DNA of 54,149 nt from Oligoflexales bacterium (GTDB lineage Bacteria > Bdellovibrionota_B > Oligoflexia > Oligoflexales > Bog-1112). This document shows positions 719 to 45,489 of the stretch, piece after piece (position 1 is the stretch's first letter; the number at the start of each line of letters is the position of its first letter). The position numbers were made by a program, and so were the translations under genes. The stretch is from the NCBI GenBank assembly GCA_045106415.1, contig JBGCEP010000078.1:1-54149 (forward strand), written 5' to 3'. The notes under the pieces are model-generated. The model was not told where the DNA came from. It worked only from the letters and a program-made list of their open reading frames with translations, and did not search any database.

Positions 719-901
719 CTATATTGTTCTCCTATCTTGAATCCTGATCATGGATGGTTTTAAAGTGTGTATTACGATATTATCTAGAGGTATTTTTATA
801 TTTTATAAACCGTAGTAAAAGGTTACGAAATAATAAGTTTTAAGCTTGAAGATTTTGTGAAAAATCTATCTGAATAAAGGTGAGAAAACTTATTATTTCA
901 T

Positions 902-1936: not shown

Positions 1937-1938
1937 TT

Positions 1939-4545: not shown

Positions 4546-4569
4546 TAATAGGGGGTGGAGGTTGTCAAT

Positions 4570-9054: not shown

Positions 9055-9064
9055 GGAGGGGTAG

Positions 9065-9394
9065 GTGGAAATTACCCAGTTAGGTTCTCTTCAGCGTGAA
9101 CAAAAAATACAAAAACAACGTTCTGAGTTGCATGAAAAAACAGCGGAAATCGAGAAGGTCTCAGAGGAGTTTGCCTCTATATTTATGGAGCTAGTTGTTG
9201 ATGCTATGAGGTCAACAGTACCGGAATCAGGACTGATAGATGGCGGGAATGCTGAAGAAATTTACCGTTCTCTTCTTGATTCGGAATATTCAAAGCAGCT
9301 TGTGACAGGCCCTGGCAAGAAACTTGCAGAAGATCTTAAGAAACAACTTTTAGCAAGACAGGGCGGCACGCAATACGGATTGCGTGAAACCTAG
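9065..9394 (+). CDS. flgJ: Short FlgJ (rod-binding domain only)
   Basis: EEFASIF..AMRSTVP..GG..EEIYRSLLDSEY; no muramidase domain. Confidence 0.87.
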   Translation: MEITQLGSLQREQKIQKQRSELHEKTAEIEKVSEEFASIFMELVVDAMRSTVPESGLIDGGNAEEIYRSLLDSEYSKQLVTGPGKKLAEDLKKQLLARQGGTQYGLRET

Positions 9395-9437
9395 GTATCG
9401 TAGACAATGATTTGTAGAGAGATTAAAGGAGGTTCTT

Positions 9438-9782
9438 ATGAGCTTAGATCGAATTTCATCAACAAAGACGCAGGGTGGTGAAGCTCTTCGTGATGTTCAG
9501 TCTTCTCGCGCCAAAGAACAAGACAAAAGAGGAGTTGGAGCGACCGATTCCACTGCGCAAGGTGTTGGGGTTCAATTGTCAAATGGAGCTAGAGAGCTTC
9601 AGGCTGCTCATCAAAAGGCTTATGACATAGCGATGGCAACGCCTGATGTTAGAGAATATAAAATAGCTTCTTTAAAAGAAAAAATTAAAAATGGAACCTA
9701 TAAAGTCGATGCTGGAAAAGTTGCGGATGGTATGCTTCGAGAGGCTATTAAAGATAAAATAGCAGCGGAGTTTGGCGGATGA
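9438..9782 (+). CDS. flgM: Anti-sigma28 factor FlgM
   Basis: VQLS, PDVREYKIASLKEKIKNGTYKVDAGKVAD. Confidence 0.92.
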   Translation: MSLDRISSTKTQGGEALRDVQSSRAKEQDKRGVGATDSTAQGVGVQLSNGARELQAAHQKAYDIAMATPDVREYKIASLKEKIKNGTYKVDAGKVADGMLREAIKDKIAAEFGG

Positions 9783-10336
9783 AAACAGAGCAAGCGGTGA
9801 AGAGTCTTTTGAAAATGCAGAAAAATTTAGAGAGCGCATTTAAACAGTGTCATGAGTTGTCTGCTGTGATGAAACAAGAGCACCGTGCGATTTCTGTTCA
9901 TAATCTTAATGAAGTGGAGGCTCTTGTTTCTCAAAAAGAGTCTTCTGCTGATGCTTTGCAAACAGTTGTTCAAGATCTTTTAGCGGATTTGCTTGCTTTA
10001 GGTGAAGATGCTTTGCCGGAAAGGTTTGAGCTTTCGTTAGGGTTGAAAATTTTTGAGCATATAGAAGCAGCTCTGTTTGATGATGATTTGCAGTCTAAGA
10101 CAGCGCGTTATCTTCTGCGAGAATGCCGTAAAGACTTAGAGCAGGTACTAGAAGTAGCAGATCGTTTGCGTTTTGATATACATCAAAATATGGTGGTTTT
10201 AGAGCGTATGATGGACCATCATCAAGAAAGTTACCGGTTTTGGCAAACAATCGCTGCAGAAGAAGGATCTCAATATGGAGATCGTGGTGAGAAGCAATCG
10301 AGTGGTCATTGTTCACAACTTGTTGTGAAAGTATAA
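9779..10336 (+). CDS. flgN: Flagellar export chaperone FlgN
   Basis: Helical protein with QEHRAI..LVSQKE and a C-terminal YGDRG motif, between flgM and flgK. Confidence 0.75.
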   Translation: MKTEQAVKSLLKMQKNLESAFKQCHELSAVMKQEHRAISVHNLNEVEALVSQKESSADALQTVVQDLLADLLALGEDALPERFELSLGLKIFEHIEAALFDDDLQSKTARYLLRECRKDLEQVLEVADRLRFDIHQNMVVLERMMDHHQESYRFWQTIAAEEGSQYGDRGEKQSSGHCSQLVVKV

Positions 10337-10339
10337 ATT

Positions 10340-11761
10340 ATGGGCGGTCTTTTCCATACATTGGGCCTTGGATCAGAGTCTTTATATGCAAATCGACAGG
10401 GTGTCGATACAGCGTCTCATAATATTGCAAATGCTCAAACAGAGGGTTATTCCCGGCAAAGGTTGATGCTTGAAACTCGAGAAGCGACCTGGCAACGAGG
10501 AAATTTAATTGGGAATGGTGTATTTGTTCGTGACGTAGAAAGATCTCATAACAAGTATATTGAGGCTCAACTGAATCGAGCTAAAAGCCAATTCGGAGCC
10601 AGTGAAGAACGTAATTCTATGTTAAAAAATGTTGAGTCTGTTTTTAGTCCTGAATTGAATGCGTCTGTGAGTGATGAGTTAACAGCTTTTTTTGGTGCTG
10701 TTCAGGTATTAACAACATATCCAGATGATTTAAATACAAGAACTCAGTTACAAGAGCTTGCTCAAAATGTCACGTCATCTTTTCGTAGAGTAAATAGTGA
10801 ATTGGTTGGGCTTCAAAAAAACATAGATGATAAAGTCATGCATATGACGACTGAAATGACGCAACTCACCAAACAAATTGCTTCTTATAATATTCAGATA
10901 AAGCAGCTTGAAGTCGGAGAGGCTACCCAGGCAAACGATCTTAGAGATCAAAGAGATATGGCTATTCGTTTGTTGAGTGAAAAAGTCGATATTCATTACT
11001 ATGAAGATCAAAATGGGATGGTTACGATTCGAGGTCCAAAAGAGATCACTATTGTTGACCGAGGCCATGCGTCAAAATTTTCAGTGACGAAAAGTGAAAA
11101 GCATCATCCTTGGGCAGATGTGGTGATTATTCCTCCAGAGGGGACAAGGAGTCAAGCTGTTGGAGATGCGATTGAAGGGGGAAAACTTTCCGGGTTAATG
11201 GAGGTTCGTGATCAAGTGCTGGAGAAACTTGTTGAGCAAAACGATAAGCTTGCTTATACATTTTCAAATAAATTTAATGAAATTCACCGACAAGGTTTTG
11301 GTGTTGGTGATTATCGAGAAACTCAAGGCCGGGACTTTTTTGAGGGTGTTGGTGATGTTAAAGGCGCGGCGCGTGAAATACGCTTGAGTGATATTGTTCA
11401 GACATCTACAGATGCGATTTCGATAGCAAGTACGTCGGCTTCTTCTGGAGATAATGTTGTTGGTAATATGTTGTTACGGCTCAAGGATTCTGCTGTTTTA
11501 GAGGGGGATGCAACGTTTCAGTCTTATTATGCGAATATGATTGGGACACTGGGTATTCAGGCTGCTCGAGCTGAACATATGCTGGAAGCTGATAAGGTTC
11601 TCCAGGGAGATTTGCAATCTAGGCGTGAAGCTGTGTCAGGAGTTTCTCTTGATGAAGAGGCTGCAAATATGATTCGTTGGCAGACGTCGTTTACGGCTTC
11701 TTCAAAGGTGATTACAACTGTGGATGAAATGCTTGAAACAGTATTGCGCCTGAAAAGATAA
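10340..11761 (+). CDS. flgK: Hook-associated protein FlgK
   Basis: SHNIANAQTEGYSRQR, NDLRDQRD, VSGVSLDEEAANM. Confidence 0.96.
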   Translation: MGGLFHTLGLGSESLYANRQGVDTASHNIANAQTEGYSRQRLMLETREATWQRGNLIGNGVFVRDVERSHNKYIEAQLNRAKSQFGASEERNSMLKNVESVFSPELNASVSDELTAFFGAVQVLTTYPDDLNTRTQLQELAQNVTSSFRRVNSELVGLQKNIDDKVMHMTTEMTQLTKQIASYNIQIKQLEVGEATQANDLRDQRDMAIRLLSEKVDIHYYEDQNGMVTIRGPKEITIVDRGHASKFSVTKSEKHHPWADVVIIPPEGTRSQAVGDAIEGGKLSGLMEVRDQVLEKLVEQNDKLAYTFSNKFNEIHRQGFGVGDYRETQGRDFFEGVGDVKGAAREIRLSDIVQTSTDAISIASTSASSGDNVVGNMLLRLKDSAVLEGDATFQSYYANMIGTLGIQAARAEHMLEADKVLQGDLQSRREAVSGVSLDEEAANMIRWQTSFTASSKVITTVDEMLETVLRLKR

Positions 11762-11770
11762 GGGTAAAAG

Positions 11771-12670
11771 ATGAGAGTGTCTGAAAGAATGCGGTATGAT
11801 ACAGCGATTTCTCGAGTGGAGAAGTCGAAAGATCGAAACTTAAAATCTTTAGATGTCCTTTCTTCTCAAAAAAGAATTAATAAACTTCGTGATGATGCAG
11901 TGGGTGCGTCTCAAGCTATTCAGGTGAAAGATGCGATTGCTGAGCTAGAGAGCTTTGAAAAAAATATCGATTTCTCAAACGGTTTTCTGCAGACGACAGA
12001 ATCAGCTCTTTCTCAGATGTCTGATCGCTTAATCCGAGCACAAGAGCTTGCTATTGCTATGTCTAACGATAGCTATGGTCCAGAAGCAAGGCAAGCAACC
12101 TCGAGAGAATTGAATGAAATTACACAAGAAGTTGTGAGGTTAGGTAATGCGTCGTTTGGTGGGCGTTATGTTTTTTCAGGATTTCGATCATCAACCCCTC
12201 CTATCTCAGACGATGGGTCTTACATGGGCGACGATGGTGTTATTTATCTTCAGGTTGAAAATGGCGTGTTTCAAAAGATAAATCTTCCCGGTCGACAAGT
12301 CTTTCAAGTCGATGAGGACGAACAATCTCAAGGTCATGGTAATATGCTAGATATGCTTCAAGTTCTTAAAGAAGGTATGGAGCAGAATGATAAGCATTCT
12401 ATGTATACTGGAATTGAGGAAATGAAGTTTCACTTGAACCGGCTTACAAGTTTGCAGGCAAGTGTTGGTGCTGTTTCAAACGCTCTTGAAAGCGCTCAGA
12501 GACGTGTGGAGTTTGATAAAGAGGCAAAAACATCACGCCTTTCTGATTTGGAAGATGCAGATGTTTATGAAGCGACCTCTGAATTCAAGCGTACAGAGAG
12601 TGTGCTGCAGAGTACGCTTCTGGCGGCAAACAAATTGTTGCAGCCGTCGTTGTTGAATTTTTTGCAATGA
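11771..12670 (+). CDS. flgL: Hook-associated protein FlgL
   Basis: SSQKRINKLRDD, GRYVFSG, SLLNFL; follows flgK. Confidence 0.94.
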   Translation: MRVSERMRYDTAISRVEKSKDRNLKSLDVLSSQKRINKLRDDAVGASQAIQVKDAIAELESFEKNIDFSNGFLQTTESALSQMSDRLIRAQELAIAMSNDSYGPEARQATSRELNEITQEVVRLGNASFGGRYVFSGFRSSTPPISDDGSYMGDDGVIYLQVENGVFQKINLPGRQVFQVDEDEQSQGHGNMLDMLQVLKEGMEQNDKHSMYTGIEEMKFHLNRLTSLQASVGAVSNALESAQRRVEFDKEAKTSRLSDLEDADVYEATSEFKRTESVLQSTLLAANKLLQPSLLNFLQ

Positions 12671-12692
12671 TGGTCACGAGTAGGGGGGTCAT

Positions 12693-12992
12693 GTGCTAGT
12701 CCTGACACGGAAAGTTGGGGAAGGAATCGCGATCGGTGATGACGTGAGAGTTGTTGTCATGCAAGTTAAGGGTAAGCAAGTGCGTTTGGGTATAAAGGCA
12801 GATGCAGGCACTTCGGTGCATCGTGAAGAGGTGTACCAACGTATACAAGATGAGAATTTGGTTGCCTCAAAATTAAACCAAGACCATTTGTCATCAGCTT
12901 GTCATATTTTTGAAAAAAGCGCTGTGAATGATGTTGCGTCCGGGGTTTTGAGGACTCGTAAGAAGCTTTCGCGGCACTCGAAAGCAAGTTAG
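12693..12992 (+). CDS. csrA: Carbon storage regulator CsrA (C-terminally extended type)
   Basis: [16 protein letters not shown]...VHREEVY..IQDEN. Confidence 0.95.
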
Positions 12993-13074
12993 TTGTGAGT
13001 TGGCCTTGCTGGAATCATCCACAGCAGGTTAGAATAGAATGAGAACTAGGGTGTATTAGAAATGGGGGGCCGTC

Positions 13075-13611
13075 TTGCTAAAAGTCAAGACCACTCGATT
13101 TGGTGAGATTGAAGTCGAAGAAGCGTCGATGCTTGAACTCCCCCATGGGTTGGTTGGGTTTCCAGAGCTCAAGCGCTACATATTGCTGGACCACGAACAA
13201 GACTCGCCTTTTAAATGGCTGCAGTCTCTGGATGATGGTGCTATTGCATTTGTTTTGATGAACCCTTTGTTGTTTAAGCCTGACTATTCTGTTGAGGTCA
13301 CGGACGCAGAGGTGTCTGATCTTGATCTTGAAGATGAGGCTGATGCAGTGGTTTCTGTGATTATCACAATGCCGAATAACCCGCAGAATATGACTGCGAA
13401 TTTAAAGGCTCCTGTGGTTTTCAACCTTAAGAATAGACATGGTAAGCAAATCATCTTAAATGATGCGCGATATACGACTCGTCACAGTGTTCTTGAGGAA
13501 ATGAAGAAGCACAATATTGAGACAGAGCAGGCTCAACAAACTGTTGAGCAAGCTCGAGACTCTCATGAAAGCGCAGCATCTTCTGACGAAGACGCATCAC
13601 AAAGTGGATGA
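13075..13611 (+). CDS. fliW: Flagellar assembly factor FliW
   Basis: TTRFGEI, GLVGF, WLQS, TANLKAPVVFN, GKQIIL. Confidence 0.95.
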   Translation: MLKVKTTRFGEIEVEEASMLELPHGLVGFPELKRYILLDHEQDSPFKWLQSLDDGAIAFVLMNPLLFKPDYSVEVTDAEVSDLDLEDEADAVVSVIITMPNNPQNMTANLKAPVVFNLKNRHGKQIILNDARYTTRHSVLEEMKKHNIETEQAQQTVEQARDSHESAASSDEDASQSG

Positions 13612-33563: not shown

Positions 33564-34616
33564 TTGAAATGTATTGTTCTCACAGGGGGAGGGACCGCAG
33601 GGCATGTGATGCCGCATATTGCTTGGCTTAAAGGATTAAGGGCTGAGGGGTGGGATGTTCGTTACGTCGGATCTTGCGGTATTGAAAAACAATTAATCTC
33701 TCAACAGAATGTTCCTTTTTACGAGATTCCTGTAGGTAAGTTACGGCGCTATTGGAGCCTTCAAAACTTTATTGACCCTTTTAAGGTGTTAGGTGGTTTT
33801 TTTTGGTCTCTTTTTTATCTTATGCGTCTTAAACCTGATGTTGTTTTAAGCAAAGGTGGGTTTGTAAGTGTCCCAGTTGCTTTAGCTGGTTGGTGTTTAA
33901 GAATACCTGTTGTTATCCATGAATCAGATGTTACTCCTGGTTTAGCGAATAAGATCTCACAACCCTTTGCTTCTCAGGTGCTTTATTCGTTTCCAGAGAC
34001 AGAAAAATATATTTCTTCAAAATCTCAGTGGCTTTTACCTCCTGTGCGCTCAGAACTTAAAGAAGGGTCCCGTGATCGAGGGTTGCAATGGCTTGGTTTT
34101 TCCAAAGATGCTCGGCCTATAGTTCTTGTTACTGGAGGTAGTCTAGGTGCGGCTCGTTTGAACCAAGCTGTGGTGGAGGAGCTCGAAGTTCTTTTAAAGT
34201 CATACCGTATCGTTCATCTCACAGGAGCTGGGAAGAATTTAGCTGAAGATAGAGAAGGTTATAAGTCTTTTGAATACTTAGGGCAAGAATTAGCTGATGT
34301 GATCGCAGCTGCGGATTTTGTCGTAGCTAGAGCTGGAGCAAACAGTATCTTTGAGTTTTTAGAACTAGAAAAACCAATGCTTTTAGTGCCGCTTGAAATT
34401 GGAAGTCGTGGTGACCAACTGCTTAATGCGCAATCGTTTGAAAAGCAAGGGTGGGCGAAAATTTTGAGAGAAAAAGACTTAAAAAATCAGCTGATCCCTG
34501 CCCTGCATTTATTGTCTGCTGAATCTTCTGTGATTATCGAGGCGCAAAAGAGCGGCAAGAAAACCCTAGAAACATCACCTAGTCTTATAAAGATTTTAAA
34601 AAATATTCATAAGTAA
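33564..34616 (+). CDS. murG: Lipid II synthase MurG
   Basis: TGGGTAGHV, GKLRRY, SKGGFVSVP, HESD.TPGLANK, GGSLGA, RAGAN, DQLLNA; TTG 33564 chosen as start. Confidence 0.94.
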   Translation: MKCIVLTGGGTAGHVMPHIAWLKGLRAEGWDVRYVGSCGIEKQLISQQNVPFYEIPVGKLRRYWSLQNFIDPFKVLGGFFWSLFYLMRLKPDVVLSKGGFVSVPVALAGWCLRIPVVIHESDVTPGLANKISQPFASQVLYSFPETEKYISSKSQWLLPPVRSELKEGSRDRGLQWLGFSKDARPIVLVTGGSLGAARLNQAVVEELEVLLKSYRIVHLTGAGKNLAEDREGYKSFEYLGQELADVIAAADFVVARAGANSIFEFLELEKPMLLVPLEIGSRGDQLLNAQSFEKQGWAKILREKDLKNQLIPALHLLSAESSVIIEAQKSGKKTLETSPSLIKILKNIHK

Positions 34617-35563
34617 AGATATGGTCTGTTAAAGATGATTCGATGAATCATGTCGATTTGTTTATGGCACTCTGGGGTGCTTTCTAAAAGAAAAGCCTTT
34701 AAAGAGTGAGGTGCAAACTTTCTTAAAATTTTTTTAGATCTTTTTTCAGAAATATCTCTGCTTAATTTTTGTAGTGTTTTTTCATAGAGACCTTGGAAGT
34801 CTGAGTCTTTGTGAAGGTCGAAGTAGTGTGCTTGAAAAGATTTAAATTCTTCATTTATAGCATTCCCCCATTCTTGTGAAAGATCTTTTTTTGTGAAGAA
34901 TTCTAAGCTTTGAAGACGTTCAAATATTTGTTCTCTTTGAAGTTGTGGCTTTTTTTTAAGAATTTCTTGGAGATCTTTTCTTATGTCTTGCATATAAAAA
35001 GAAGCTTTTTTACGTGAGGGTTTATGAAAGATTTTTCGCCAAAAATTTTCAGGAAAAGAAGGGTTGATAAAGCCAGATACCGCAGAAGATAAGTCTATAT
35101 AAGAATAGCCTGCAAACCCTTCTTTGATGCTTTGTGTACTGTGATTCGTATTCATATAGAATTCAACAAAATGCACAAGGTGAGTGTCAATGTGATCTAC
35201 CTTAGAATTTTCTCTCATTTCGCTAATAAGACCTTCAAGGTAGTGTAACCCTAGAAAGTCTGTAAGTTGTTCATAATTATGATCAGTGAGCATTTCTTGA
35301 ATATTAGTGTAAATTTTTCGAGAAGTGTCCATGCGGGCTTGTTGGAATTTCTCTATAGATAAAGACCAATAACTTATTGCAATAAGGAGCTCGCTGAGAC
35401 GTCCCCGGGATGTACTGGGCAGTTCTTTTTGATATTGATTGAGGATTTCATTATGAGCAGTTTGTCTGATTTCATTCTCATGAGAGCGATTTGGGGCAGG
35501 GTTGTTTTGACTATAGACACAGAGTGGAGTTAAGAAAAAATAGACTAAAAAGATTAAATGCAT
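34607..35563 (-). CDS. Hypothetical exported helical protein
   Basis: 318-aa ORF with signal peptide (VYS-Q); no recognised family; 3' end overlaps murG by 10 bp. Confidence 0.7.
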   Translation of the reverse strand: MHLIFLVYFFLTPLCVYSQNNPAPNRSHENEIRQTAHNEILNQYQKELPSTSRGRLSELLIAISYWSLSIEKFQQARMDTSRKIYTNIQEMLTDHNYEQLTDFLGLHYLEGLISEMRENSKVDHIDTHLVHFVEFYMNTNHSTQSIKEGFAGYSYIDLSSAVSGFINPSFPENFWRKIFHKPSRKKASFYMQDIRKDLQEILKKKPQLQREQIFERLQSLEFFTKKDLSQEWGNAINEEFKSFQAHYFDLHKDSDFQGLYEKTLQKLSRDISEKRSKKILRKFAPHSLKAFLLESTPECHKQIDMIHRIIFNRPYLYL

Positions 35564-35903
35564 AGAAACCCCAGTGTAGTTTTGTTGCTAGCTTATAGAG
35601 AGAGTTTTTAATTGAGTCAAGTTTTTTTGGAGTTTCTTTTTATTCTTCAGCTCTTAAGAATAAGGATTCTTTTAAATTTTTGATTTAAAAGAAAACTCAC
35701 TTCAGTATAGAGGATTCGAATGATTGATATAATCACAGCATTCTTTATTGTTAAGCTCCGAAAGTTAATTTTTGTGAGAGATATAGTGATTGTGTTGTTT
35801 TCTGATTGTGAATAGAGAAAATACGCAAAACTTTTTCTCCACTCAAGATCACATCAGGTTTTGAATTTAAGTCCAGTTTTATCAATGGATTTGTTTTGTA
35901 GAA

Positions 35904-36533
35904 TTAAATGCCAATTGAGACTTTGAATGCATAAGATTTAGGGCTTGTCTGAGCTGTTTTAACCTCAGCCGATACAGCAATAAAAGGAGGGAAGAGATGC
36001 CAGTAAAATCCAGCATCTTGTGTGAGCTCTCCCCATTGATGGTAGTCGTTAGTATCAGATACTTGGATGTGATGAGCGTACCCGAAATTTGCCCATAGAC
36101 TGATAGACCGATATCCCCAGCTAGCTAAGATTTGTGCTGTCGTTGTGTGAAGTGGGCCCTGTGTCGATACAAACATACGGCTGTGGGTAGTTCTAAGAGC
36201 GATGGCTGGAGTCATAAACTTTTCGTAGAGAGTATATTGGATATAGCCTGAATAACTTTTCTCTTCTTCAAAACTCGCAAGACCTAAACCTATATCAAGA
36301 GGCCAGAAAATACCTTTGGTTAGCCAGGCTCGAGTGACTGTTTGAGTTGAAATACTGCCGTCTTCCTCGGGGGTGCGAATCTGTTCAAAGCCACTTCCTA
36401 AGTTTACTCCTACCCCGTGTGAAGAAGCTCTTTCTGTTGGGCTAAACCGGTTTAAACTGCTTTGGTACGTCATCGTATTCCCAAATAAGGGAGCGCTCAG
36501 AAAAAAGAAGAGAAGTGTCGTTTTCAATTTCAT
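35904..36533 (-). CDS. Exported probable beta-barrel protein
   Basis: Start MKLKTTLLFFFLSAPLFG at 36533 with GAGG RBS; amphipathic strands; ends YAFKVSIGI. Confidence 0.6.
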   Translation of the reverse strand: MKLKTTLLFFFLSAPLFGNTMTYQSSLNRFSPTERASSHGVGVNLGSGFEQIRTPEEDGSISTQTVTRAWLTKGIFWPLDIGLGLASFEEEKSYSGYIQYTLYEKFMTPAIALRTTHSRMFVSTQGPLHTTTAQILASWGYRSISLWANFGYAHHIQVSDTNDYHQWGELTQDAGFYWHLFPPFIAVSAEVKTAQTSPKSYAFKVSIGI

Positions 36534-36851
36534 ATATGCCTCTATTTTGTGGTGTCGATATGTTTGCATTAAAATTTTACAGAGAATCTCTAAAAATACA
36601 GAAACCTTTTTTTGAATTGCAGATTTAGCATGAGAGACAGAGTCTGTCGTTGGTACCTCTTTTTCCTTTCCCATGCTTAGAGTTTCAGCAGGTTGTTAAC
36701 TTTGATATTGAGCCATTTTTATGAATATCATTGTAAACAATGATTTATTTTATCAGATTTATATAAATATTTGTGGAGGAGGTTGTGAGAAGATTCGTAG
36801 TTGTAGAATAATGAAATTTCTGCGTTCTACTGGAAATAGAAAAGATGTTAG

Positions 36852-36892
36852 AAAATTTAGTGAATACTTTTATGAAATATCCACTAAATTTT
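36852..36892. terminator. Inverted repeat downstream of the 36911 gene (probable terminator)
   Basis: AAAATTTAGTGAATA / TATCCACTAAATTTT, 14 of 15 complementary. Confidence 0.5.
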
Positions 36893-36910
36893 AAGAGATA
36901 GAGAATCTTT

Positions 36911-37432
36911 CTACATTTGTAATGAGCACCCCATATGGACTTCCCATGGGTCTTTTGGGGAGCGATTTATTGGATCTATTCTATGCTCGTATCTTGTTCC
37001 TAATCGTCCTTCTACAGAGACTTTCTCTGTAGCGTCAAATTGATATCCAATATAATAATTCATAAGTCCTGAGTATTCTAAAGCTTGATCAGAATGCTTT
37101 AATGCTGATAAACCAACTTGTTGGTTTACTGAAAGAGTAAGGTCTTTTAGTTGAATGCTGAATCGTGGTCCGTAAAGTACAGAAAAACTATGTGCTGTAG
37201 AGCTGAATTGTACTCCATAGTGTTTTCCTGCTTCTACTGAGAAGATGTGGTGAGAAGAAAATTCAGAAGAGTTAGGAATAAAGATTTCAAGACCTGCTGA
37301 GTTTTTAGGAGATGATTCGCTTTGACTCATAAATATCGAGTACTTGTTCTCACTCCTGTTTTCAGAAGCATAACTATTGCTCGTGTTAATGATAAGAGTG
37401 AGCATTAATAAAATCTTTGCTGTGTATAACAT
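36911..37432 (-). CDS. Small exported probable 8-stranded outer-membrane beta-barrel
   Basis: Signal peptide (SYA-S); strands such as YGVQF, LYGPRF, NYYIGYQF, VEGRLGTRY, WEVHMGCSL. Confidence 0.6.
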   Translation of the reverse strand: MLYTAKILLMLTLIINTSNSYASENRSENKYSIFMSQSESSPKNSAGLEIFIPNSSEFSSHHIFSVEAGKHYGVQFSSTAHSFSVLYGPRFSIQLKDLTLSVNQQVGLSALKHSDQALEYSGLMNYYIGYQFDATEKVSVEGRLGTRYEHRIDPINRSPKDPWEVHMGCSLQM

Positions 37433-37495
37433 AATTTAAAACCTTTAATGAATAGATAAGTGATGTTGTTAATTGTTTTTTGTTAAATGATACTC

Positions 37496-38146
37496 TTAGC
37501 TTTTTCGATCTTCATGATAAATACCGTATGCAGCTCCAACTACCACGCTTGCTCCGACAGCAATCCCTTCCGCCATCGTGCCAGCTCCAAGTCCGGCTAA
37601 GCCTCCCTGAAGAGTGCTTTGTCCAATTTTCTCACAGCTTTTTAACTTTTCTTTAAATTTATGGAGACCAAATGGATTGTGTACAATGAGAGGAAATTTT
37701 TCATCTATGATATAAGTGTGATAATCAGAGACTTCAAAATTAAAAAGTTCAACTTCTTTTATAATTTTTTGAATAGCGTGAACTTCAATAGTGCTGTCGA
37801 TGCCTTGAAGTTTTTCTTTTATATCTATATTTTCAATTGCAATCCATTCTAGCTGGCTTGATAAAAATAGCTGACCTTCACCAGTGATGAATTCATTCCC
37901 ATTGCTAAGGGTGATTTTATATGCATAATCAGCTTTTCTCTTCATGGTCTCTGAAATTCTTTTGTGTTCAAGATCAAGATTTTTTTGTTGCATTACACTA
38001 GTGACAAACTGATTGGGATAAATTCTGGATATTGCTTTTTTGTAGCCACAACAGATGATTTTTGTTTCTGACGTAAAACCACCTGGGAATTCTAACCCGA
38101 ACGCATTAGATGAAATAAATAGTAAGATATAACTGAAAATTTTCAT
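37496..38146 (-). CDS. Signal peptide + Hint (bacterial intein-like) domain + 59-aa glycine-zipper peptide
   Basis: GFTSETKI (block A with Cys1>Gly), YKITLSNGNEFIT (block B lacking His), LFNFEVSDYHTYII (block F), LIVHN (H156-N157), then a Gly/Ala-rich tail. Confidence 0.85.
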   Translation of the reverse strand: MKIFSYILLFISSNAFGLEFPGGFTSETKIICCGYKKAISRIYPNQFVTSVMQQKNLDLEHKRISETMKRKADYAYKITLSNGNEFITGEGQLFLSSQLEWIAIENIDIKEKLQGIDSTIEVHAIQKIIKEVELFNFEVSDYHTYIIDEKFPLIVHNPFGLHKFKEKLKSCEKIGQSTLQGGLAGLGAGTMAEGIAVGASVVVGAAYGIYHEDRKS

Positions 38147-38689
38147 AAATAACCCTAAAGAATTTTGATTTTATTTTTGAGTCTATAACTCATTGTGTAA
38201 TTCTTGTTAATTATGATTAACCGGTCAACAAAAACATTATTTTTCTTGTTAGTGTAATAAAAAACAGTGAATTAAATGAATGTTTATTTTAGCCTTAGAA
38301 AATATTGATTATTTATCTCTGCTTGAATCTTTAGAAATTCCCTTCTAGAGGAAGTACTCAGGTGGAAAAATATTCACGTTCAAATTATAAAATTTACACA
38401 AAAATATTGTCTGTTTTTTTCATATGAATGATCGTTGTATAGAAAAGAAAATTTACTTATCTAACATTATTAAGTTGCTCTGAATGCTCATATGCATTTT
38501 AATAAAATCTCCTGAGTAATCCCTCGTGTTTTTTTGTTTAAATAACAATCTGATAATACAAGTTTTATTGTGCTTCTGATAAAAAATCTCAATATATATA
38601 AATAATCATGTATAAATATAACTCATATGAAAAACAAATATCTTATTTAACTACTAAATATATGAATATACCTAAATTTTGGAGAGATT

Positions 38690-39838
38690 TTGAAAACACC
38701 AGCGCTGAAATCTAAGTATTTATTTTGTGGGCTACTTTTATCAACGCAAAGTAGTTTTGCCGCATTAAGAGATCTGCCTTATCACCCTCGTTTTATACCA
38801 ATTACAAGCTCGTCAGAGCGCCCTTTAGGATCAGGTTATACGCAAGGCTTAAAAGGAGCTGAAGAGTTTTGCAAACAAGGTGTTGTGCAACAAATTGGCG
38901 GTGGTGACCCATCTGTTATTACTGAATCTAATAATGTTTTGTCTCACACATATTTATATATGGACAATAAAACGAAAAAATCTACAACAGAAGTTAAAAG
39001 TAATACTGAGGTTAGTGACACACTAAAACTTGGGAAAGCGCTTTTAGATTCAAAAATGACATCTCAAAGCGATACACTCAGTACTGATTTGATTCTTTTT
39101 TCTTATTATTCACCTAAGCATGAAAGAATTGATTCACAGAAGTGTGAATTATCTAAAATAAAGAATTTTGCTTATAATGAAAAAAATTCTTTTTCATTCA
39201 TGTGTGATTTTTATGGTAATACGCAGAAGATATCACCTGTTATGATACCTGAACAAGCTCGGAGATTCTTATCCTCAACAGGAGTTCGAGTTATTAATGA
39301 ACATTATTATGGTCTCTCATACTTTTTATCTGCATCATTACGGTTTCAGTCTGAGTCTGACAAAATTAATTTCTCAAAAAAAATTAATGGAACTTTTCCA
39401 AAAGCAAATGGAGAAATGAATTTAGATATTGCACAGAACCATCAAACAAGTCATTTCAGCATTGATGTTAATCTTGATAAAAACTCGATGATTCCAGCGT
39501 TTAATGCATTAAAAAATATTGGGAAAAATCATTTGGTTGAAGAGATTGATGAACTTGAAGAAAAATTACTTTTACAAGCTCAAGAAGGCAATATACAGGG
39601 TACTATTAAAATGATGATCGCCTTGTCGAAGAGAATTGAGAATGTTCAACAAGAAATTTATGCCTTAGAACAAAATGGTGTAAAAATTTCTTTACCTGTG
39701 ATTGCTGCTGGATTGTCATATCATAATAATTGTACGAAAGAAATTCAAACAATTGAAAGATGTATTCAACTTTCATTTAATAAAGTCTTTGACCGACAAA
39801 CTGCAGCAGAGAAAAAACAAAAATCATCAAAGTGGTAA
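38690..39838 (+). CDS. Exported protein with putative MACPF/CDC-like fold
   Basis: Signal peptide (SFA); LGSGY; FLSSTGVRVINEHYYG keeps the G-x9-G spacing of the MACPF signature; Ser/Thr-rich alternating segments. Confidence 0.45.
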   Translation: MKTPALKSKYLFCGLLLSTQSSFAALRDLPYHPRFIPITSSSERPLGSGYTQGLKGAEEFCKQGVVQQIGGGDPSVITESNNVLSHTYLYMDNKTKKSTTEVKSNTEVSDTLKLGKALLDSKMTSQSDTLSTDLILFSYYSPKHERIDSQKCELSKIKNFAYNEKNSFSFMCDFYGNTQKISPVMIPEQARRFLSSTGVRVINEHYYGLSYFLSASLRFQSESDKINFSKKINGTFPKANGEMNLDIAQNHQTSHFSIDVNLDKNSMIPAFNALKNIGKNHLVEEIDELEEKLLLQAQEGNIQGTIKMMIALSKRIENVQQEIYALEQNGVKISLPVIAAGLSYHNNCTKEIQTIERCIQLSFNKVFDRQTAAEKKQKSSKW

Positions 39839-39847
39839 TTATGTATA

Positions 39848-39870
39848 AGAAGGGGCGAAGTCTCTTTTTT
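39848..39870 (+). terminator. Possible terminator after the MACPF-like gene
   Basis: AGGGGC-GAA-GTCTCT followed by a T-run. Confidence 0.45.
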
Positions 39871-39896
39871 AATACTTCTTAATCTGGAGTTCGAAA

Positions 39897-41192
39897 ATGT
39901 TAATAAGATTGTTGATCAGTATCTGCCTTTTTTCTTCGACAAACAGTTATTCTTTTGATCGAACGGTATCTTCGTCTTGGTTGAAGAATAAAATACATAT
40001 TGATGAATCTGATTCTCGTATTAGATCTGGTGCAATTATTGGTATTCGTGAATTTACAGATCCCTCTACGTTAAGTTTTGAGCTCGCGACACAAAGCCGC
40101 TTCGGGCATGTTGGAATTTTTATTTCAACTGAAGATATGATGGAAGCATATATTCAGGCTGTGACTCACCCTGATATTTACAAAGATTTTATAAAAGATT
40201 TAGTTGAAATGATACCAGATCAAAATAACCATGATGGTGGTTATTATGATTTTAAGAAGCAGATTGTAAACGGTAAGGCTGATGGATCTTTGTCTTTTTA
40301 TCTGAGTTTTTCAAATTTAATAGAGAGAGATTGCATTGAGTGGTTTTTGAAAAAAAATTTAAAAAATAACACCATTGAAGAAGTTAGAAAAATTGCTTCA
40401 GATATTTATAATAAAACAAGTCTTGTTCAAGAAAGAAATGAAGTAATTAAAGATTTTTTTGGTCATGATGTATCTCTTCCTTTTGATTATAAAGGTGGAG
40501 TCATTCTTGATATGTCTCCTTCAATAGATTTATTGGAGTGGGCCACTCCTCATTTTATTTCAGCTATTAATAATAATCTTCTTAGTGTTATTCAGCCAAA
40601 GAAAAATCTTTCGATTGAACAAGTTTCAAAAATTTTGATCTATCGACATATTATGCAGGATTTGAGAGTGAAATATAATTTCTCTCAATCTATTAAGGGT
40701 ATCAGCCAACAGAATTGCTCAGAATTTGTTCATAATGCTTTCTCTCTTATCGGGATTGACAATATTGGTGTAGAACAAAATATGAGTTCTTTAAATACAA
40801 AAGCTCTGGGTGGAAGTTTAAAAACGGCGTCTGTTCTGTCTGGGCAATATTCTTCAGAAAACAGAGTTATAACACCTAAAAGTGTCATGATGTCAGGCTA
40901 TTCTCACCCTAGTATGGAAGTGGTTCATGATTTAGATTTTCTTAATATTAAAGAACCTGTTTCTGATAGAACTCTCTATCGTGAATGGAAAGATACAGGT
41001 AAATTACATTGGAGCTATAAGGCGTTAAAAATAATGGGGTGTGGTTGGAGGCAACCGTCTGACTGCACTCAAAATATAGAAGAAGCAAATGATGGTGAGA
41101 GTTATAGTTCAAGCTCCATGATTGTTAGTGGGGCTATTGGTGCTGCGATTGTTGGTGTAAGCATTGCTTATCTGTCTAAGTTATTTATCTGA
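39897..41192 (+). CDS. Permuted papain-like amidase (YiiX/YaeF, C92-like) with large insertion and C-terminal TM segment
   Basis: IRSGAII..ATQSRFGHVGIF (His71), KYNF..QQNCSEFVHNAF (Cys274), VITPKSV; signal peptide; hydrophobic C-terminus. Confidence 0.8.
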   Translation: MLIRLLISICLFSSTNSYSFDRTVSSSWLKNKIHIDESDSRIRSGAIIGIREFTDPSTLSFELATQSRFGHVGIFISTEDMMEAYIQAVTHPDIYKDFIKDLVEMIPDQNNHDGGYYDFKKQIVNGKADGSLSFYLSFSNLIERDCIEWFLKKNLKNNTIEEVRKIASDIYNKTSLVQERNEVIKDFFGHDVSLPFDYKGGVILDMSPSIDLLEWATPHFISAINNNLLSVIQPKKNLSIEQVSKILIYRHIMQDLRVKYNFSQSIKGISQQNCSEFVHNAFSLIGIDNIGVEQNMSSLNTKALGGSLKTASVLSGQYSSENRVITPKSVMMSGYSHPSMEVVHDLDFLNIKEPVSDRTLYREWKDTGKLHWSYKALKIMGCGWRQPSDCTQNIEEANDGESYSSSSMIVSGAIGAAIVGVSIAYLSKLFI

Positions 41193-41214
41193 ATAGAGAT
41201 GTTAGAGGTTTGAT

Positions 41215-43035
41215 ATGAAACGAATCATTATTATGTTTCTTAGTTTTTATATGAATTGTCTTTTCGGAAATACCGTAAGTGATTGGAAAGATCATTTAAG
41301 AGAAGCTATTCAAAATGATAATGAGTTGGAGTTTTTTCAAGAAAATGATCTGACTTTACCAAGCGGTGTTGTAATTGTTCATAGCTGGAATGCAAGTCCT
41401 ATCAAAGAAGATGAGAGTACAGTCGGTCATCTTAGTCTTCAAATATCTGATCTTTATATTAGTGTTTGGCCAGAAGATTCTGACGACCCTTATTCACCTA
41501 TTCGCTTGTCTTCTTTCCACGAAGATTTTGAAGTTATGGGTACTAGCCAATATCTGATTTTACAGCTACAAGAAGATGAATATAACTTGGTGTATCAAGA
41601 AGCTGAAAACACCATGATGAATTTCATGGAAAATCAAGATGATTACGCATTTACAATTGGATCTTTTGAGATAAAAACACCTCATGGTGACCCAAAAAAC
41701 AGTGAATACATGACGGTTTCAGCGAGTCTTTCTTCCGGTGAGTCTGCTTTTAGTATTAGAAACAAGTCTAGCTTGCAACATATTGTAGATGCGGCTAAAG
41801 AGCAATTTGCAGAAAAATTAAATTTTAAAAAATATGTTGGAAGAGTAGCTGGTGGCTGTAGTGGATTTGCAGCTGGAGCAGCAGCTTGTGGAGTTGCTGA
41901 AAGCTTTGTGGGAGGAATAGGAAGTTTAATGTTAGGGTCTGCTGCTGCAGGTCCTATTGCATTAGCAGCAGTAATAGGTGGTGTTGCTATTGCAGGGATT
42001 GGAACAACTGCAGGTCATTTTATTGCAAAAGGTGTTACTTGTATTAGTAAACAAAATTTTGAATATCCTGTGGGAGAAGGTCATAGGCCACTTGAAGTTT
42101 GTTATCGAATGCCTACGTTTAATGAAAAGATTTCTGATGGTAGAAGAGCTGTTTGTTGTAAAACATCTGTCTATAGTGTCTTGAAGCAAAGTCAAGAACT
42201 TACAAAATATATTGACGCAACCGACAAAGAAAGCTGTTCTTTAAGGGCAGACCTTTATCTTAATCTTTATGGTTCAGTTACAGAATTAAGAGAAGCTCTG
42301 CAGAAATCTGATGATCCTGACAGAGTAATATCAGATTTTATTCGAGAAAGAGGAAATATTAGAACTAGAAACTCAAAAAGTGATGTTGTTCTTAATAAAA
42401 TTACGAGTTGTTTATCTAAAAATAATCAGAAAGATATTAAAGATATTATTAAAGAAGTGTTGGTGAGTCTTATTGCAGCGCAATCAGGTGATTTTAAGAA
42501 ATTTGAAAATATTTTAGATGATTTAGAGTTAAATAAAGGCAAGCTTTCTATTTTACTTGCAAATCCTTCAATCCTTCCTGGGAGTTCATTACAAAATTTA
42601 GGAGCTTCCTTATCTGAATCAACAAATTATGTCGCATCGAGTTTTGAAAAAGACTTAGGTGCGCCTGTAACGACTAAAATACAATTTAAAGAGTTGTTAG
42701 AAGATAAGTACTTAGGAATAAAAAAAATAAATGGACAAGTAAAAGTTATTGTTGATAGCAAGAAAAATTTAGATTGCTATGATTTTAGACTTATCCAAGT
42801 ATCAGCATCTGAAAATAAATATGCTTTATATAATGACACTTTGGGTCTTACCATACAAGCTGATAATCATAATGAATTATGTGTTCATAATCCTGACTTC
42901 TCAGAAGAAGAGAGCTTTTTGATTGTGCATAATTCTATAGATTCAAGGTCATTGTTACCGTTTAGTCATCCTAGTCATATTTTTGCAGAAAAAGAATGGA
43001 TCATTGAATCTTTTGAGCAGAGTGAAGGAAAATAA
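41215..43035 (+). CDS. Exported multidomain protein: putative permuted papain-like core, Gly/Ala-rich membrane segment, fascin-like C-terminus
   Basis: VGHLSLQI..YISVWP (His72), CCKTSVYSVL (Cys314/315), GxxxG-rich aa ~209-273, C-terminal KYLG..F.LI..YALY..EESF repeats. Confidence 0.5.
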   Translation: MKRIIIMFLSFYMNCLFGNTVSDWKDHLREAIQNDNELEFFQENDLTLPSGVVIVHSWNASPIKEDESTVGHLSLQISDLYISVWPEDSDDPYSPIRLSSFHEDFEVMGTSQYLILQLQEDEYNLVYQEAENTMMNFMENQDDYAFTIGSFEIKTPHGDPKNSEYMTVSASLSSGESAFSIRNKSSLQHIVDAAKEQFAEKLNFKKYVGRVAGGCSGFAAGAAACGVAESFVGGIGSLMLGSAAAGPIALAAVIGGVAIAGIGTTAGHFIAKGVTCISKQNFEYPVGEGHRPLEVCYRMPTFNEKISDGRRAVCCKTSVYSVLKQSQELTKYIDATDKESCSLRADLYLNLYGSVTELREALQKSDDPDRVISDFIRERGNIRTRNSKSDVVLNKITSCLSKNNQKDIKDIIKEVLVSLIAAQSGDFKKFENILDDLELNKGKLSILLANPSILPGSSLQNLGASLSESTNYVASSFEKDLGAPVTTKIQFKELLEDKYLGIKKINGQVKVIVDSKKNLDCYDFRLIQVSASENKYALYNDTLGLTIQADNHNELCVHNPDFSEEESFLIVHNSIDSRSLLPFSHPSHIFAEKEWIIESFEQSEGK

Positions 43036-43073
43036 TTTTAGATATAAACGTGGAGATGTGGATAAAGTTTTAA

Positions 43074-43114
43074 TAAAAAAGACTACCTGACATAATGATT
43101 TATAGGTAGGTTTT
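43074..43114. terminator. Possible terminator hairpin after the 41215 gene
   Basis: A-run-CTACCT ... AGGTAG-GTTTT. Confidence 0.4.
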
Positions 43115-43336
43115 ATATGTGGTTTTTGATGAAGATTATTGTGTTGAATGTTTTTTAGAGAAGAATTCCAGAACGATTTAATTAACTTAATGTAAATTAC
43201 GTGATGAGTAATAAGTTTTATTTAGATGAATATTCTAATTTTCAAAAGGTATTGTGGCGTATTATCCGTCCTCAAGGCAAATAATTTATAAAATATAACA
43301 TAGCAATCAAACGTAGATGATGAATGGAGAAAGAAT

Positions 43337-44659
43337 TTGAATATTTTTAATGGAACTATCGTTTCAGTAACGCTTGTTGCTTCAGCGATGTTAAGTGGAG
43401 GAACAGAGTTTAAAGCATGTTTAAAAACTGTCCATCAAAAATTTGTAACAGCAACGCAATGCGATGAACAATGGGTTGCTAGAGGGGCAGCAGATCAAGT
43501 CGGAGGTTGGGAAGTCTTTTTAATTTCAGTCGATGATAACGGTTTTGCAACGTTAAAATCTGAACATCAAAAATACCTTACAGCAACGGCTCATGATGAA
43601 AATTTTGTTGTCCGCGGTTCGGCTGACAAAGCTGATGCATGGGAGAAATTTAAATTTATTAAAAATGAAGATGATTCTTGCTCTTTTAAAACTGTTCATA
43701 ATAAATACATAACCGCAACGGCTCATGATGAGAATCTAGTTCTTCGAGGAAGCGCTACTGAAAACAATCAGTGGGAGAAGTTCTTTTTAGTGAATATAAT
43801 TAATATGGATTTCATGAGGGATAGTCATAGGAATTCAGAGTTTAATATTCCTATGTGTGACCTTGCTTACGCGAGTAATAATGCATATTCAATGAAGGGT
43901 TTTAAGGCTGAAAATGGTTTCCTTAATTATGATGTAGCTGCTAGGTCAAAGTCTAACAATATGTTGGCGGTGTTGTTTTTAAGTACAACAGATCATGTTG
44001 CGATTGTAAGTTTTCAAGGGACAAATAGCTGCACTTCTTTAGTGAATGACGCTAAAATAGGATGCCTGGGTAAAGAAGGTTTGAATAATGTTTTTAAACA
44101 AGCACGAAAAAACTTTGAAGAATTTAGAGATTTATTAAGAAATAAAGATGTCTATATTTGTGGACATTCGCTGGGAGGTATTGCAGCGCAGATAATAGCA
44201 GGTAAAAAAAATATTAAAGGAGCTGCCTTTAATACAATGGGCATTAGAAATCTAGATGTTTATTTTGATAATCGTCCTGAATTTTATATCCATAATACAG
44301 AATCATTTATCCATAATGGTTTAGGGAATACATACTTAGGGAAACTTGTTATTCATAGAGGAGTTTCTCATCGTATGTGCGATTTAATTTCAAAACACTT
44401 TAATAGTTCTTGCTCGCTTAATTTAGATAAATGCTCTTCTCATTTTAGACCTACCCTTGTAAGGCAAGTTGCAAATCATTGCGGTGGTTTTTTATATAGA
44501 GTGGTAAGAGAAAAGCACAACAAACTATGTGATGTCTTTGATGAAAAAAACGAAGCGATAGAACAATTTAAAAAAGGTCATGAAGACCAGGCTATTGAAC
44601 ACGCAATGAACTCTGTTGTTGCTGTTTTACATTTAATTAAATTTAGAGGTGTTAAATGA
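43337..44659 (+). CDS. Fascin-like beta-trefoil + class 3-like lipase (alpha/beta hydrolase)
   Basis: Three 44-aa repeats (LKTVHQKFVTA..WEVF, LKSEHQKYLTA..WEKF, FKTVHNKYITA..WEKF); VSFQGT, GHSLGG (Ser278), AAFN, HRM. Confidence 0.85.
   Translation: MNIFNGTIVSVTLVASAMLSGGTEFKACLKTVHQKFVTATQCDEQWVARGAADQVGGWEVFLISVDDNGFATLKSEHQKYLTATAHDENFVVRGSADKADAWEKFKFIKNEDDSCSFKTVHNKYITATAHDENLVLRGSATENNQWEKFFLVNIINMDFMRDSHRNSEFNIPMCDLAYASNNAYSMKGFKAENGFLNYDVAARSKSNNMLAVLFLSTTDHVAIVSFQGTNSCTSLVNDAKIGCLGKEGLNNVFKQARKNFEEFRDLLRNKDVYICGHSLGGIAAQIIAGKKNIKGAAFNTMGIRNLDVYFDNRPEFYIHNTESFIHNGLGNTYLGKLVIHRGVSHRMCDLISKHFNSSCSLNLDKCSSHFRPTLVRQVANHCGGFLYRVVREKHNKLCDVFDEKNEAIEQFKKGHEDQAIEHAMNSVVAVLHLIKFRGVK
43421..43790 (+). 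repeat. Three tandem 132-bp coding repeats (beta-trefoil lobes)
   Basis: Units start at 43421, 43553 and 43685; GCAACGGCTCATGATGA is shared by units 2 and 3. Confidence 0.85.
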
Positions 44660-45489
44660 AATTATTTTATTTTCTAATGAGTTTGAGTTTGTTTTCTTGT
44701 GGTACAGAAAATATGTCTAGTTTTCAAACAGAAGACTTAAGTATTTCTCTTTTGAGTTCGGTTTCGACGGATGATCGACTTGATCCATCATTTATAGTGT
44801 TAGATAGAAAAACATTGAACCTAAATGGACATTCTATTGATTTTGTTCATGTTCCTGGTGGGGTTGCTGAGCTCTATAAATGCGGTACGTTGAATACCAA
44901 TTTCGAGAGAAAGGTATTAAAAGAGCGGTTAGATTCTTACTGGATTTCCACGACAATGATGACCCAAGATATTTACAGAGCTGTTATGGGTCAAAATCCA
45001 TCAGTAAACCAAGAAGGACGTTATCCCATTCACAATATAGGATATGCTGACGCTGTTTCTTTTATCGGAAAATTAAACGATCAACTGAAAAAAAATGATA
45101 TTGAAATTGAAGTTTCTTTACCAAATGATTTTCAATGGATTCATGCTGTGAACGGTGGGCAGAGTACTAATTTTTATTGGGGTGATGATATTCGTGAAGG
45201 CTCTGAGTTTGAGTGGCTGGATTATGTTGGTGATCAATCTGAAAAAATGCATCCTGTCGCTCAAAAGAAACCTAATCCATATGGTCTTTACGATGGAGTT
45301 GGTCATTGTTCTGAGTTTGTGCAACCTTTGCTTCCTGCTCATAATATTGATGGGCGAGAATTATCTGCTGTTATAGGATTGCACTATTATGAAGACCTAG
45401 ATATGGCAGACTTTTTTAGATATACATCTCCAGCAGGAAGAGATCATGGCCCATGGTCAATGACGAGTTTTCGTTTGGTTTGTAAATAA
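44656..45489 (+). CDS. Lipoprotein with FGE-sulfatase/SUMF1 (CLec-fold) domain
   Basis: Lipobox LFSC; FVHVPGG, MTQDIYRAVMGQNPS, YPIHNI, SLPNDFQW, HPVAQKKPNPYGLYD..G..SE, SFRLV; ATGA overlap with the lipase stop. Confidence 0.88.
   Translation: MKLFYFLMSLSLFSCGTENMSSFQTEDLSISLLSSVSTDDRLDPSFIVLDRKTLNLNGHSIDFVHVPGGVAELYKCGTLNTNFERKVLKERLDSYWISTTMMTQDIYRAVMGQNPSVNQEGRYPIHNIGYADAVSFIGKLNDQLKKNDIEIEVSLPNDFQWIHAVNGGQSTNFYWGDDIREGSEFEWLDYVGDQSEKMHPVAQKKPNPYGLYDGVGHCSEFVQPLLPAHNIDGRELSAVIGLHYYEDLDMADFFRYTSPAGRDHGPWSMTSFRLVCK

Follow-up and report, generated by a model that had tools for sequence, protein, structure and literature searches.

The stretch of DNA examined here (the window; 54,149 nucleotides of contig JBGCEP010000078.1, assembly GCA_045106415.1, from an Oligoflexales bacterium) contains on its minus strand an intact open reading frame (ORF; 37496-38146, stop codon included) for a 216-residue precursor, which consists of a Sec-type signal peptide, a Hint domain and a 59-residue tail. 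Comparison of sequences and models suggests that this gene is a minimal, highly diverged member, and the shortest one known, of a lineage-specific class of Sec-exported PT-HINT polymorphic toxins that appear built for C-terminal cleavage only and that occur in relatives of the predatory Bdellovibrio bacteria. For the copy in the window we propose that the Hint domain releases the tail as a membrane-active peptide, a reading to which we give an even chance of being correct. The frame and the tail had both been described in a first-pass annotation of the same DNA, and both were recovered in the ORF list and the sequence.

Hint fold and catalytic residues

The Hint domain, of the bacterial intein-like (BIL) and PT-HINT type, extends from Gly23-Phe24 to His156-Asn157 (residues 23-157; 37676..38080, minus strand). 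The Pfam model PT-HINT (PF07591) matched residues 37-157 with an E-value of 7.7e-5 and 23.4 bits, and an AlphaFold2 model computed from a 55-row alignment reached a mean predicted local distance difference test score (pLDDT) of 81, with values of 87-98 across residues 21-160. Foldseek comparison with the PDB placed BIL domains and mini-inteins first (6y75, E 2e-10); the superposition on 2lwy gave a template-modelling (TM) score of 0.90 and a root-mean-square deviation of 1.5 A. At E <= 0.001 there were 64 PDB matches, and BIL domains or inteins made up all 44 among the matches listed. Additionally, a profile of 16 family members matched 2lwy, the C. thermocellum BIL domain, at E 1.2e-31. Because of the model confidence, the top structural matches and this profile comparison, the Hint fold predicted for residues ~21-160 is not in doubt, and the domain claimed in the first-pass annotation is upheld by the same evidence together with the sub-cut-off Pfam match.

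Two alignments, one by phmmer to 116 hits and one of the family by MAFFT, place Gly23 in the Cys1 column. Of the 116 database hits, the query and a metagenomic protein, P0079, are the only ones with Gly at that place. Block B is degenerate (residues 88-92, TGEGQ; 37871..37885, minus strand), its Thr-x-x-His being lost and the place of the His being taken by Gly91 in the phmmer alignment or by Gln92 in the MAFFT alignment. Kept are the block F histidine, His143 (F:13; 37718..37720, minus strand), and the terminal pair His156 (G:6) and Asn157 (G:7; together 37676..37681, minus strand), in which Asn157 is the predicted cyclising residue and Asn157|Pro158 the putative scissile bond. These alignments agree with the losses and retentions that the earlier annotation had listed. 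As a splicing intein the protein does not qualify, its +1 residue being Pro158 rather than Cys, Ser or Thr and its N-extein being absent save for the signal peptide; nor does it qualify as a class 1 intein, there being neither a Cys/Ser nucleophile nor a block B Thr-x-x-His. The available text of an intein review (PMC4031507) assigns activation of the N-terminal junction to Thr B:7 and His B:10 and Asn cyclisation to His F:13, His G:6 and Asn G:7, and it allows C-terminal cleavage off-pathway with the earlier steps skipped. Set against these roles, the retained and lost residues fit a Hint domain limited to C-terminal cleavage, as had been suggested from the sequence, and release at Asn157 is therefore plausible. 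The proline at +1 is rare and not unique, since it recurs in one relative, L014 (VHNPEGPY), and in the database match P0095 (HNPAG). Bonds of this type are broken when the side chain of the Asn attacks the carbonyl of its own residue. Asn-Pro is counted among the hydrolysis-prone bonds in the accessible part of a review on peptide stability (PMC10056213).

The signal peptide was read by eye at residues 1-17 (MKIFSYILLFISSNAFG; 38096..38146, minus strand). It has a basic residue, a hydrophobic core and an A-x-G site before the junction MKIFSYILLFISSNAFG|LE, so that signal peptidase would likely cut after AFG, and residues 4-11 form a low-confidence helix in the AlphaFold2 model. What follows is PGGF...LIVHN and then the tail. 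The precursor is strongly diverged: a word-index search for close homologues of the whole 216-residue protein returned itself alone, the best all-database phmmer match among 1.84 billion representatives had an E-value of 2.7e-8 at 32% identity, and a scan against NCBIfam gave no match at E <= 1. Two DNA runs from a single study, which carry the label plant metagenome, contain the stretch, and one of them may be its source, while no RNA run was listed for it; a promoter and terminator scan found 13 sites versus 13.2 expected by chance.

Relatives, their cargo and their immunity genes

The same genome holds a paralogue (contig 89, L002:1441-2202, plus strand; BLASTP E 4e-8 against the query) of 253 residues, in which a signal peptide, a Hint domain that begins GGF and ends AHN, a hydrophobic segment and an Ntox33 toxin domain (Pfam E 1.1e-13) follow one another. 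Its AlphaFold2 model has a pLDDT of 91-98 in the Hint domain and of 42-60 in the segment behind His-Asn. Encoded 14 nt after it is a 132-residue DUF4279 protein (L002:2217-2615, plus strand; Pfam E 3e-14), and judged by their domains the two genes together look like a complete mini toxin-immunity module. P0079, of 218 residues, shares the short architecture of the query and has a Gly-rich two-helix tail. A profile built from the query, the paralogue and P0079 found eight proteins. Within the family it matched 10 of the 15 other genomes; outside it, none of 25 genomes, which represent 15 further families of the order. When the set was widened to 131 genomes, 15 had a match at E <= 1e-6 (10/15 in family f1, 3/22 in f15, 1/12 in f12 and 0 in the rest), and a four-sequence alignment led to three related loci. 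The class comprises the paralogue and about 18 relatives, nearly all of one family.

All 17 proteins with complete N-termini carry a signal peptide 0-15 residues ahead of the Gly-Phe (GGF, EGF, KGF or AGF), and position 1 is Gly in 17 of 17 members whose Hint domain directly follows the signal peptide. Two further Gly1 proteins are cut off by contig ends, and one exception, L020, has its Gly1 behind a 330-residue N-terminal region. None of the 10 PT-HINT proteins of the same lineage with long N-terminal regions and no Gly departs from a nucleophile at this position (Cys in nine, Ser in one); their toxins are of the Tox-HNH-EHHH, Ntox21, Colicin-DNase/WHH and Tox-ART-HYD1 types. Although the 16 aligned Gly1 proteins are only 15-24% identical to the query, G23, F24, T28, W101 and H156 are invariant and N157 is retained in at least 90% of them, which argues that the C-terminal cleavage site is still working. 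Of 16 Gly1 proteins scanned, the Pfam cut-off for PT-HINT is passed by L010, L009, L012, L011, L014, L023, L020, L019 and L026, as well as by P0118 and L031, and is missed by the paralogue, L013, L025, P0119 and L015. The block B and block F histidines seem to alternate across the family alignment. In L010, L012, P0118 and L009 the block B His is present (NPDH) and F:13 is Glu or Asn; in the query, the paralogue, L013, L014, L023, L025 and L026 the His at F:13 is present and block B has Gln. Both histidines occur in L011 and L019.

The sequence behind His-Asn varies widely among these homologues, a property for which the first-pass annotation had proposed to look. Pfam recognised Ntox33 in the paralogue and P0118, Ntox37 in L010, Ntox28 in L019 and, in L025, the colicin E3-type domain 'Cytotoxic' at 22.7 bits versus a cut-off of 22, and the remaining Gly1 members, save L015, have unrecognised sequence at this place. 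A variable toxin region after His-Asn is thus found at the level of the family, and the cargo of the window copy is without a recognised toxin domain. The gene after L019 encodes a CdiI_3 immunity protein (E 8e-19), small signal-less ORFs directly follow most other relatives, and even the short form L009, which has a basic tail only, is followed immediately by a signal-less ORF of 178 residues at the position of the relatives' immunity genes. The exception, L015 (G008, 805-2175, minus strand), joins a signal peptide and a Gly1-Hint domain without block F His in frame to a full membrane enzyme of the 3-oxo-5-alpha-steroid 4-dehydrogenase type (Steroid_dh, E 1.3e-55); here the Hint part may be a leader that removes itself from an ordinary membrane protein, or the fusion may be an artefact. 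Taken together, the shared architecture, the variable toxin tails and the immunity-type genes of the relatives suggest a lineage-specific class of PT-HINT toxins.

The hydrophobic segment and the 59-residue tail

A hydrophobic stretch, defined by a Kyte-Doolittle 19-residue mean (KD19) of at least 1.5 within 70 residues after His-Asn, was present in 13 of 18 Gly1 members, a count that is partly circular because the search profile contained tails and that lends our reading correspondingly less weight, versus 0 of 105 canonical Hint C-termini among the database-wide phmmer hits, a single one of which reaches 1.2. The stretch often begins at +1 with a conserved FAFVIPIxTWVIGEG, or else is Gly/Ala-rich. 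Such stretches also occur, 25-72 residues behind His-Asn, in 4 of 9 large Cys1 toxins from this lineage, so that they are as characteristic of the lineage as of the Gly1 subclass. In a large Cys1 PT-HINT toxin, L032 (G066), a long glycine-zipper-like region lies before the Hint domain and not after it (residues ~400-495). Basic residues come after the stretch in most relatives, from which an N-out, C-in orientation is predicted, and this orientation fits stop-transfer in the producer's membrane and insertion into a target membrane after release alike. Since the segment is common to the class and precedes enzymatic toxins, it may be a module for membrane entry or anchoring and not a bacteriocin.

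In the window copy the freed peptide would have a computed mass of 6035 Da and a pI of 9.0. Its first part, a predicted cationic amphipathic helix at residues 160-180 (37607..37669, minus strand), has a net charge of +3 and a hydrophobic moment of 0.42, a value reached by 3% of 5000 shuffles (p 0.03). Its second part, a predicted glycine-zipper hydrophobic helix at residues 181-210 (37517..37606, minus strand), is Gly/Ala-rich, with 10 overlapping [GAS]xxx[GAS] motifs and a maximum KD19 of 1.55, and is followed by the terminus HEDRKS, of net charge 0, and by no enzymatic domain. AlphaFold2 placed helices at residues 161-180 and 189-206 with low confidence (pLDDT 55-67). The tail is unlike those of the relatives in its additional 20-residue cationic amphipathic helix and in the charge that flanks its hydrophobic helix (+3 before, 0 after). 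An ESM Atlas search on the tail gave no usable feature match, its structural rows being generic helix hairpins, and a four-copy complex prediction, run without controls, gave no verdict (score 0.02, mark 0.32) and speaks neither for nor against an assembly.

The first-pass annotation had likened the tail to class II bacteriocins, and a true bacteriocin or microcin homologue captured by a Hint domain would account for its cationic character and its GxxxG repeats, as well as for a match of the tail alone to positions 22-57 of the 59-position Bacteriocin_IIc profile (PF10439; E 0.011). This match, however, scores 16.2 bits versus a cut-off of 27.1, and the match to DUF6861 stands at the same level (E 0.011, far under threshold), so we read the likeness as compositional only. 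Such peptides are likewise small, cationic, Gly-rich, membrane-active and released from a precursor, but their double-glycine leader is cut by a C39 peptidase-ABC exporter, whereas here there is a Sec signal in place of that leader and no exporter of this type among the genes of the window, where the nearby ABC genes are of the oligopeptide type. A word-index search among 5.8 billion proteins of 118-378 residues found no relatives of the tail, a result that counts against capture of a bacteriocin, which we regard as improbable, and that gives our own proposal no comparative support either.

The mechanism we favour would begin with Sec export, in which signal peptidase strips everything N-terminal of the Hint domain. 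On the simplest reading, the signal peptide has replaced the N-extein, so that the N-terminal nucleophile became useless and was lost, Cys1 turning into Gly and block B degenerating. The domain would retain the Asn cyclisation machinery alone (His143, His156 and Asn157); after folding in the periplasm Asn157 would cyclise, the Asn157-Pro158 bond would break, and a 59-residue, 6.0-kDa peptide of pI 9, made of a cationic amphipathic and a glycine-zipper helix, would be freed and insert into a membrane, be it that of a competitor or prey cell or the producer's own. The earlier idea of an autoprocessing precursor stands in part, with the Hint fold, the residue pattern and the variable tails on its side; the bacteriocin identity is not supported, and neither is the claim that Hint replaces the leader peptide, since the Sec signal does the leader's work and what is replaced is the N-extein. 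In the relatives, the equivalent hydrophobic segment has a nuclease-type toxin behind it. Here the tail is the entire cargo and, like the glycine-zipper ends of TelE and EsxX, would most likely act by permeabilising or depolarising a membrane. EsxX has a C-terminal glycine-zipper toxin that causes membrane depolarisation (PMC12744356), TelE likewise ends in a glycine-zipper toxin (10.1101/2022.09.07.506920), and Tox-WTIP is a two-helix pore toxin domain (PMC3482391); as far as the available texts of these sources describe them, these precedents make it a reasonable reading that the tail is the toxin. EsxX and TelE resemble the proposed peptide in that a short C-terminal glycine-zipper module is the toxic part. 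They differ, in the same texts, in their type VII secretion system (T7SS) and LXG domain, their Gram-positive hosts and the lack of Hint processing, we detected no sequence homology to them, and they have membrane or soluble immunity partners with genes close by, of which none is evident here.

Several observations weigh against this proposal. The PT-HINT score of the window copy lies under the Pfam gathering cut-off (23.4 versus 27.7 bits). The block F His is missing in L010, L012, P0118, L009 and L015, and the Hint domain of P0079 ends in His-Asp, so that cleavage may not be universal in the class. No immunity-type gene adjoins this copy, whose sole downstream gene is a barrel-like orphan, and no small membrane ORF is evident beside it. 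The peptide would, moreover, need a route across the outer membrane. The gene lies inside a 10-kb low-GC island of orphan genes, and elsewhere there are degenerate copies, one of them (L008; G014:C3) with an in-frame TAG just past its FAFVIPVFT motif and another (L038; G014:C2) a truncated frame of 145 residues. Finally, the hydrophobic segment could merely stop transfer in the producer's inner membrane, and the fusion of L015 to a membrane enzyme implies that a post-Hint segment can be an ordinary transmembrane helix.

These points lead to a rival explanation, which sees the product as a periplasmic protein with a membrane anchor or as a remnant without a toxin. The Gly/Ala helix would then stop transfer and hold the protein in the inner membrane of the producer itself, the toxin domain having been lost or the Hint module having a non-toxic role, and cleavage would shed the Hint domain and leave a harmless peptide. 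The missing immunity gene, the orphan island, the degenerate copies and L015, which couples the same Hint domain to a polytopic membrane enzyme, are the reasons for which we keep this as a strong rival, possible though not what we expect. It would also agree with the hydrophobic segment being a shared module ahead of real toxins in the relatives, with their charge distribution, which fits N-out, C-in insertion, and with the reduced L009. On the other hand, the frame, the signal peptide and all invariant family residues, including His156-Asn157, are intact in the window copy despite its extreme divergence, and its tail, with the extra cationic helix and the reversed flanking charge, is no truncated copy of the relatives' segment. 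The KD19 of 1.55 is at the low end for an anchor (12 other C-terminal candidates in the genome range from 1.51 to 2.77), and L009, however short, still has an ORF at the immunity-gene position. If the rival were true, the gene would encode merely a lineage-specific membrane protein of little wider interest.

The layout of the tail, a Gly-Gly motif, a hydrophobic helix and a short charged end, is also that of a C-terminal sorting signal of the GlyGly-CTERM/rhombosortase or exosortase type, which would be removed as the Hint domain is attached to the surface, and a few other proteins of the genome end in a Cys-Gly motif, a helix and a basic tail. NCBIfam, however, found nothing in the protein at the threshold given above, the GlyGly-CTERM model (TIGR03501) missed the tail at E <= 10 in a search of the whole genome, and the best rhombosortase candidate (TIGR03902) scored 57 bits versus a cut-off of 84, a level at which 14 of 14 control genomes have a match. 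HEDRKS is no basic cluster, and the relatives carry whole toxin domains after the segment. With the tail unmatched by TIGR03501 and no rhombosortase above the cut-off, we rejected this reading as very improbable.

Hint-processed polymorphic toxins are known from genome analysis; to our knowledge, how the freed toxins cross the inner membrane of the target cell is mostly unknown. The class described here pairs a natural Hint domain that apparently performs C-terminal cleavage only with a segment, hydrophobic or of the glycine-zipper type, that lies precisely where the new N-terminus is predicted. This pairing allows a broader reading, which we think unlikely as a whole, namely that the Gly1-Hint proteins are self-delivering mini-toxins of predatory or host-dependent Bdellovibrionota that work independently of any secretion system. 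The Hint domain would serve as a self-removing periplasmic leader and shield, and Asn cyclisation would expose the segment at the new N-terminus; the segment would insert N-out, C-in into the inner membrane of the target or prey and drag a small basic nuclease into the cytoplasm. The window protein would then be the bare entry module, acting as a pore or depolariser, and the Hint leader might also place ordinary membrane proteins, as in the steroid-reductase fusion. The window copy presents the membrane module on its own, free of any enzymatic toxin. With lengths of 216-340 residues the class gives a compact system for the study of Hint-triggered membrane entry, and it offers a natural template for traceless, self-cleaving export tags.

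Known systems and genomic neighbourhood

We assign the protein to the Hint/BIL superfamily, in which it is best grouped with the PT-HINT domains that polymorphic toxins carry, although this copy has neither the Cys1 nucleophile nor a score above the Pfam threshold. As far as the available text of Zhang et al. 2012 (PMC3482391) goes, PT-HINT domains (PF07591; BIL structure 2lwy) have the same fold and the same terminal His-Asn, and in polymorphic toxins that use Sec and the type II secretion system (T2SS) they lie just ahead of the variable C-terminal toxin with an immunity gene downstream, a placement seen here in the relatives. The present class differs in its invariant Gly in place of Cys1 and its degenerate block B, in the position of the domain directly behind the signal peptide without an N-terminal filament or trafficking domain, and in the hydrophobic or glycine-rich segment that follows His-Asn. 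Closest in architecture among described systems is class 1 MafB of Neisseria (PMC4287609), which in the accessible text consists of a signal peptide, DUF1020, an A-type BIL domain and a variable C-terminus. The two have in common a Gram-negative host, a Sec signal, a BIL domain where the polymorphic toxic C-terminus begins, and an immunity gene downstream (MafI there, and here in relatives of the window copy); a conserved DUF1020 region of ~300 residues before the BIL domain is absent here, and that text describes no hydrophobic segment after it. For the hydrophobic segment of the relatives, a model is provided by the Agrobacterium type VI secretion system (T6SS) DNase Tde1, which needs its glycine zipper in order to be translocated into target cells (PMC10240207, available text): GxxxG repeats beside a nuclease permeabilise the target cytoplasmic membrane and so admit the toxin. 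The zipper of Tde1, however, is N-terminal, its delivery is by T6SS, it has no Hint domain, and there is no homology.

Engineered mini-inteins that cleave at the C-terminus are Cys1-to-Ala variants used for tag removal. There too a nucleophile-less Hint domain frees whatever follows its terminal Asn, much as in the reaction proposed here, but they are laboratory mutants of splicing inteins, and the present class would be a natural, lineage-wide version. In the open literature searched, to which the supplements of Zhang et al. 2012 and subscription journals do not belong, a Cys-less, signal-adjacent Hint domain with a hydrophobic follower is undescribed.

Downstream of the Hint gene, after a gap of 63 nt, lies a gene for a 173-residue signal-peptide protein (36911..37432, minus strand) whose link to the Hint gene is uncertain. 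Neither Pfam nor NCBIfam gave a match; by its sequence it resembles a small outer-membrane beta-barrel, with Atlas leads to OMP_b-brl/OmpA_membrane clusters. The gene was not found in the genomes of 20 relatives, and the two barrel-like genes downstream are not paralogues of each other (BLASTP E 8.3).

The island that contains the Hint gene (34500..45000) was delimited by its composition profile and by the lack of Pfam families among its ORFs. Its guanine-plus-cytosine (GC) content is 31-37%, versus 42-47% in the flanks, and it is bordered by murG on one side and, on the other, by a GATase gene and then a class-I Glu/Gln tRNA synthetase gene. Signal-peptide-like N-termini were read in the island genes at 34607-35563, 35904-36674, 36911-37432, 38690-39838 and 39897-41192, the last of which encodes a 431-residue protein that ends in a Gly/Ala-rich helix and has a faint match to the permuted papain fold of YiiX (E 0.007). 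Elsewhere in the window there is an ordinary flagellar cluster (4555-13611) with two rod genes of the FlgE/F/G type, flgA, flgH, flgI, flgN, flgK, a gene of the flagellin family and fliW.

Two further kinds of protein were seen in the genome (G000). Contigs C17, C18 and C62 encode a few signal-peptide proteins whose C-termini, a Cys-Gly motif followed by a hydrophobic helix and basic residues, resemble sorting signals of the MYXO-CTERM type. Two paralogous frames of ~790-865 residues (C1:35029-37386, plus strand; C33:28793-31387, minus strand) have a C-terminal Hint-like domain that starts with NGCF, the Cys being kept, and that has no His-Asn end and no cargo behind it, a hedgehog-like arrangement; one of the two frames scores above the PT-HINT cut-off (33.2 bits).

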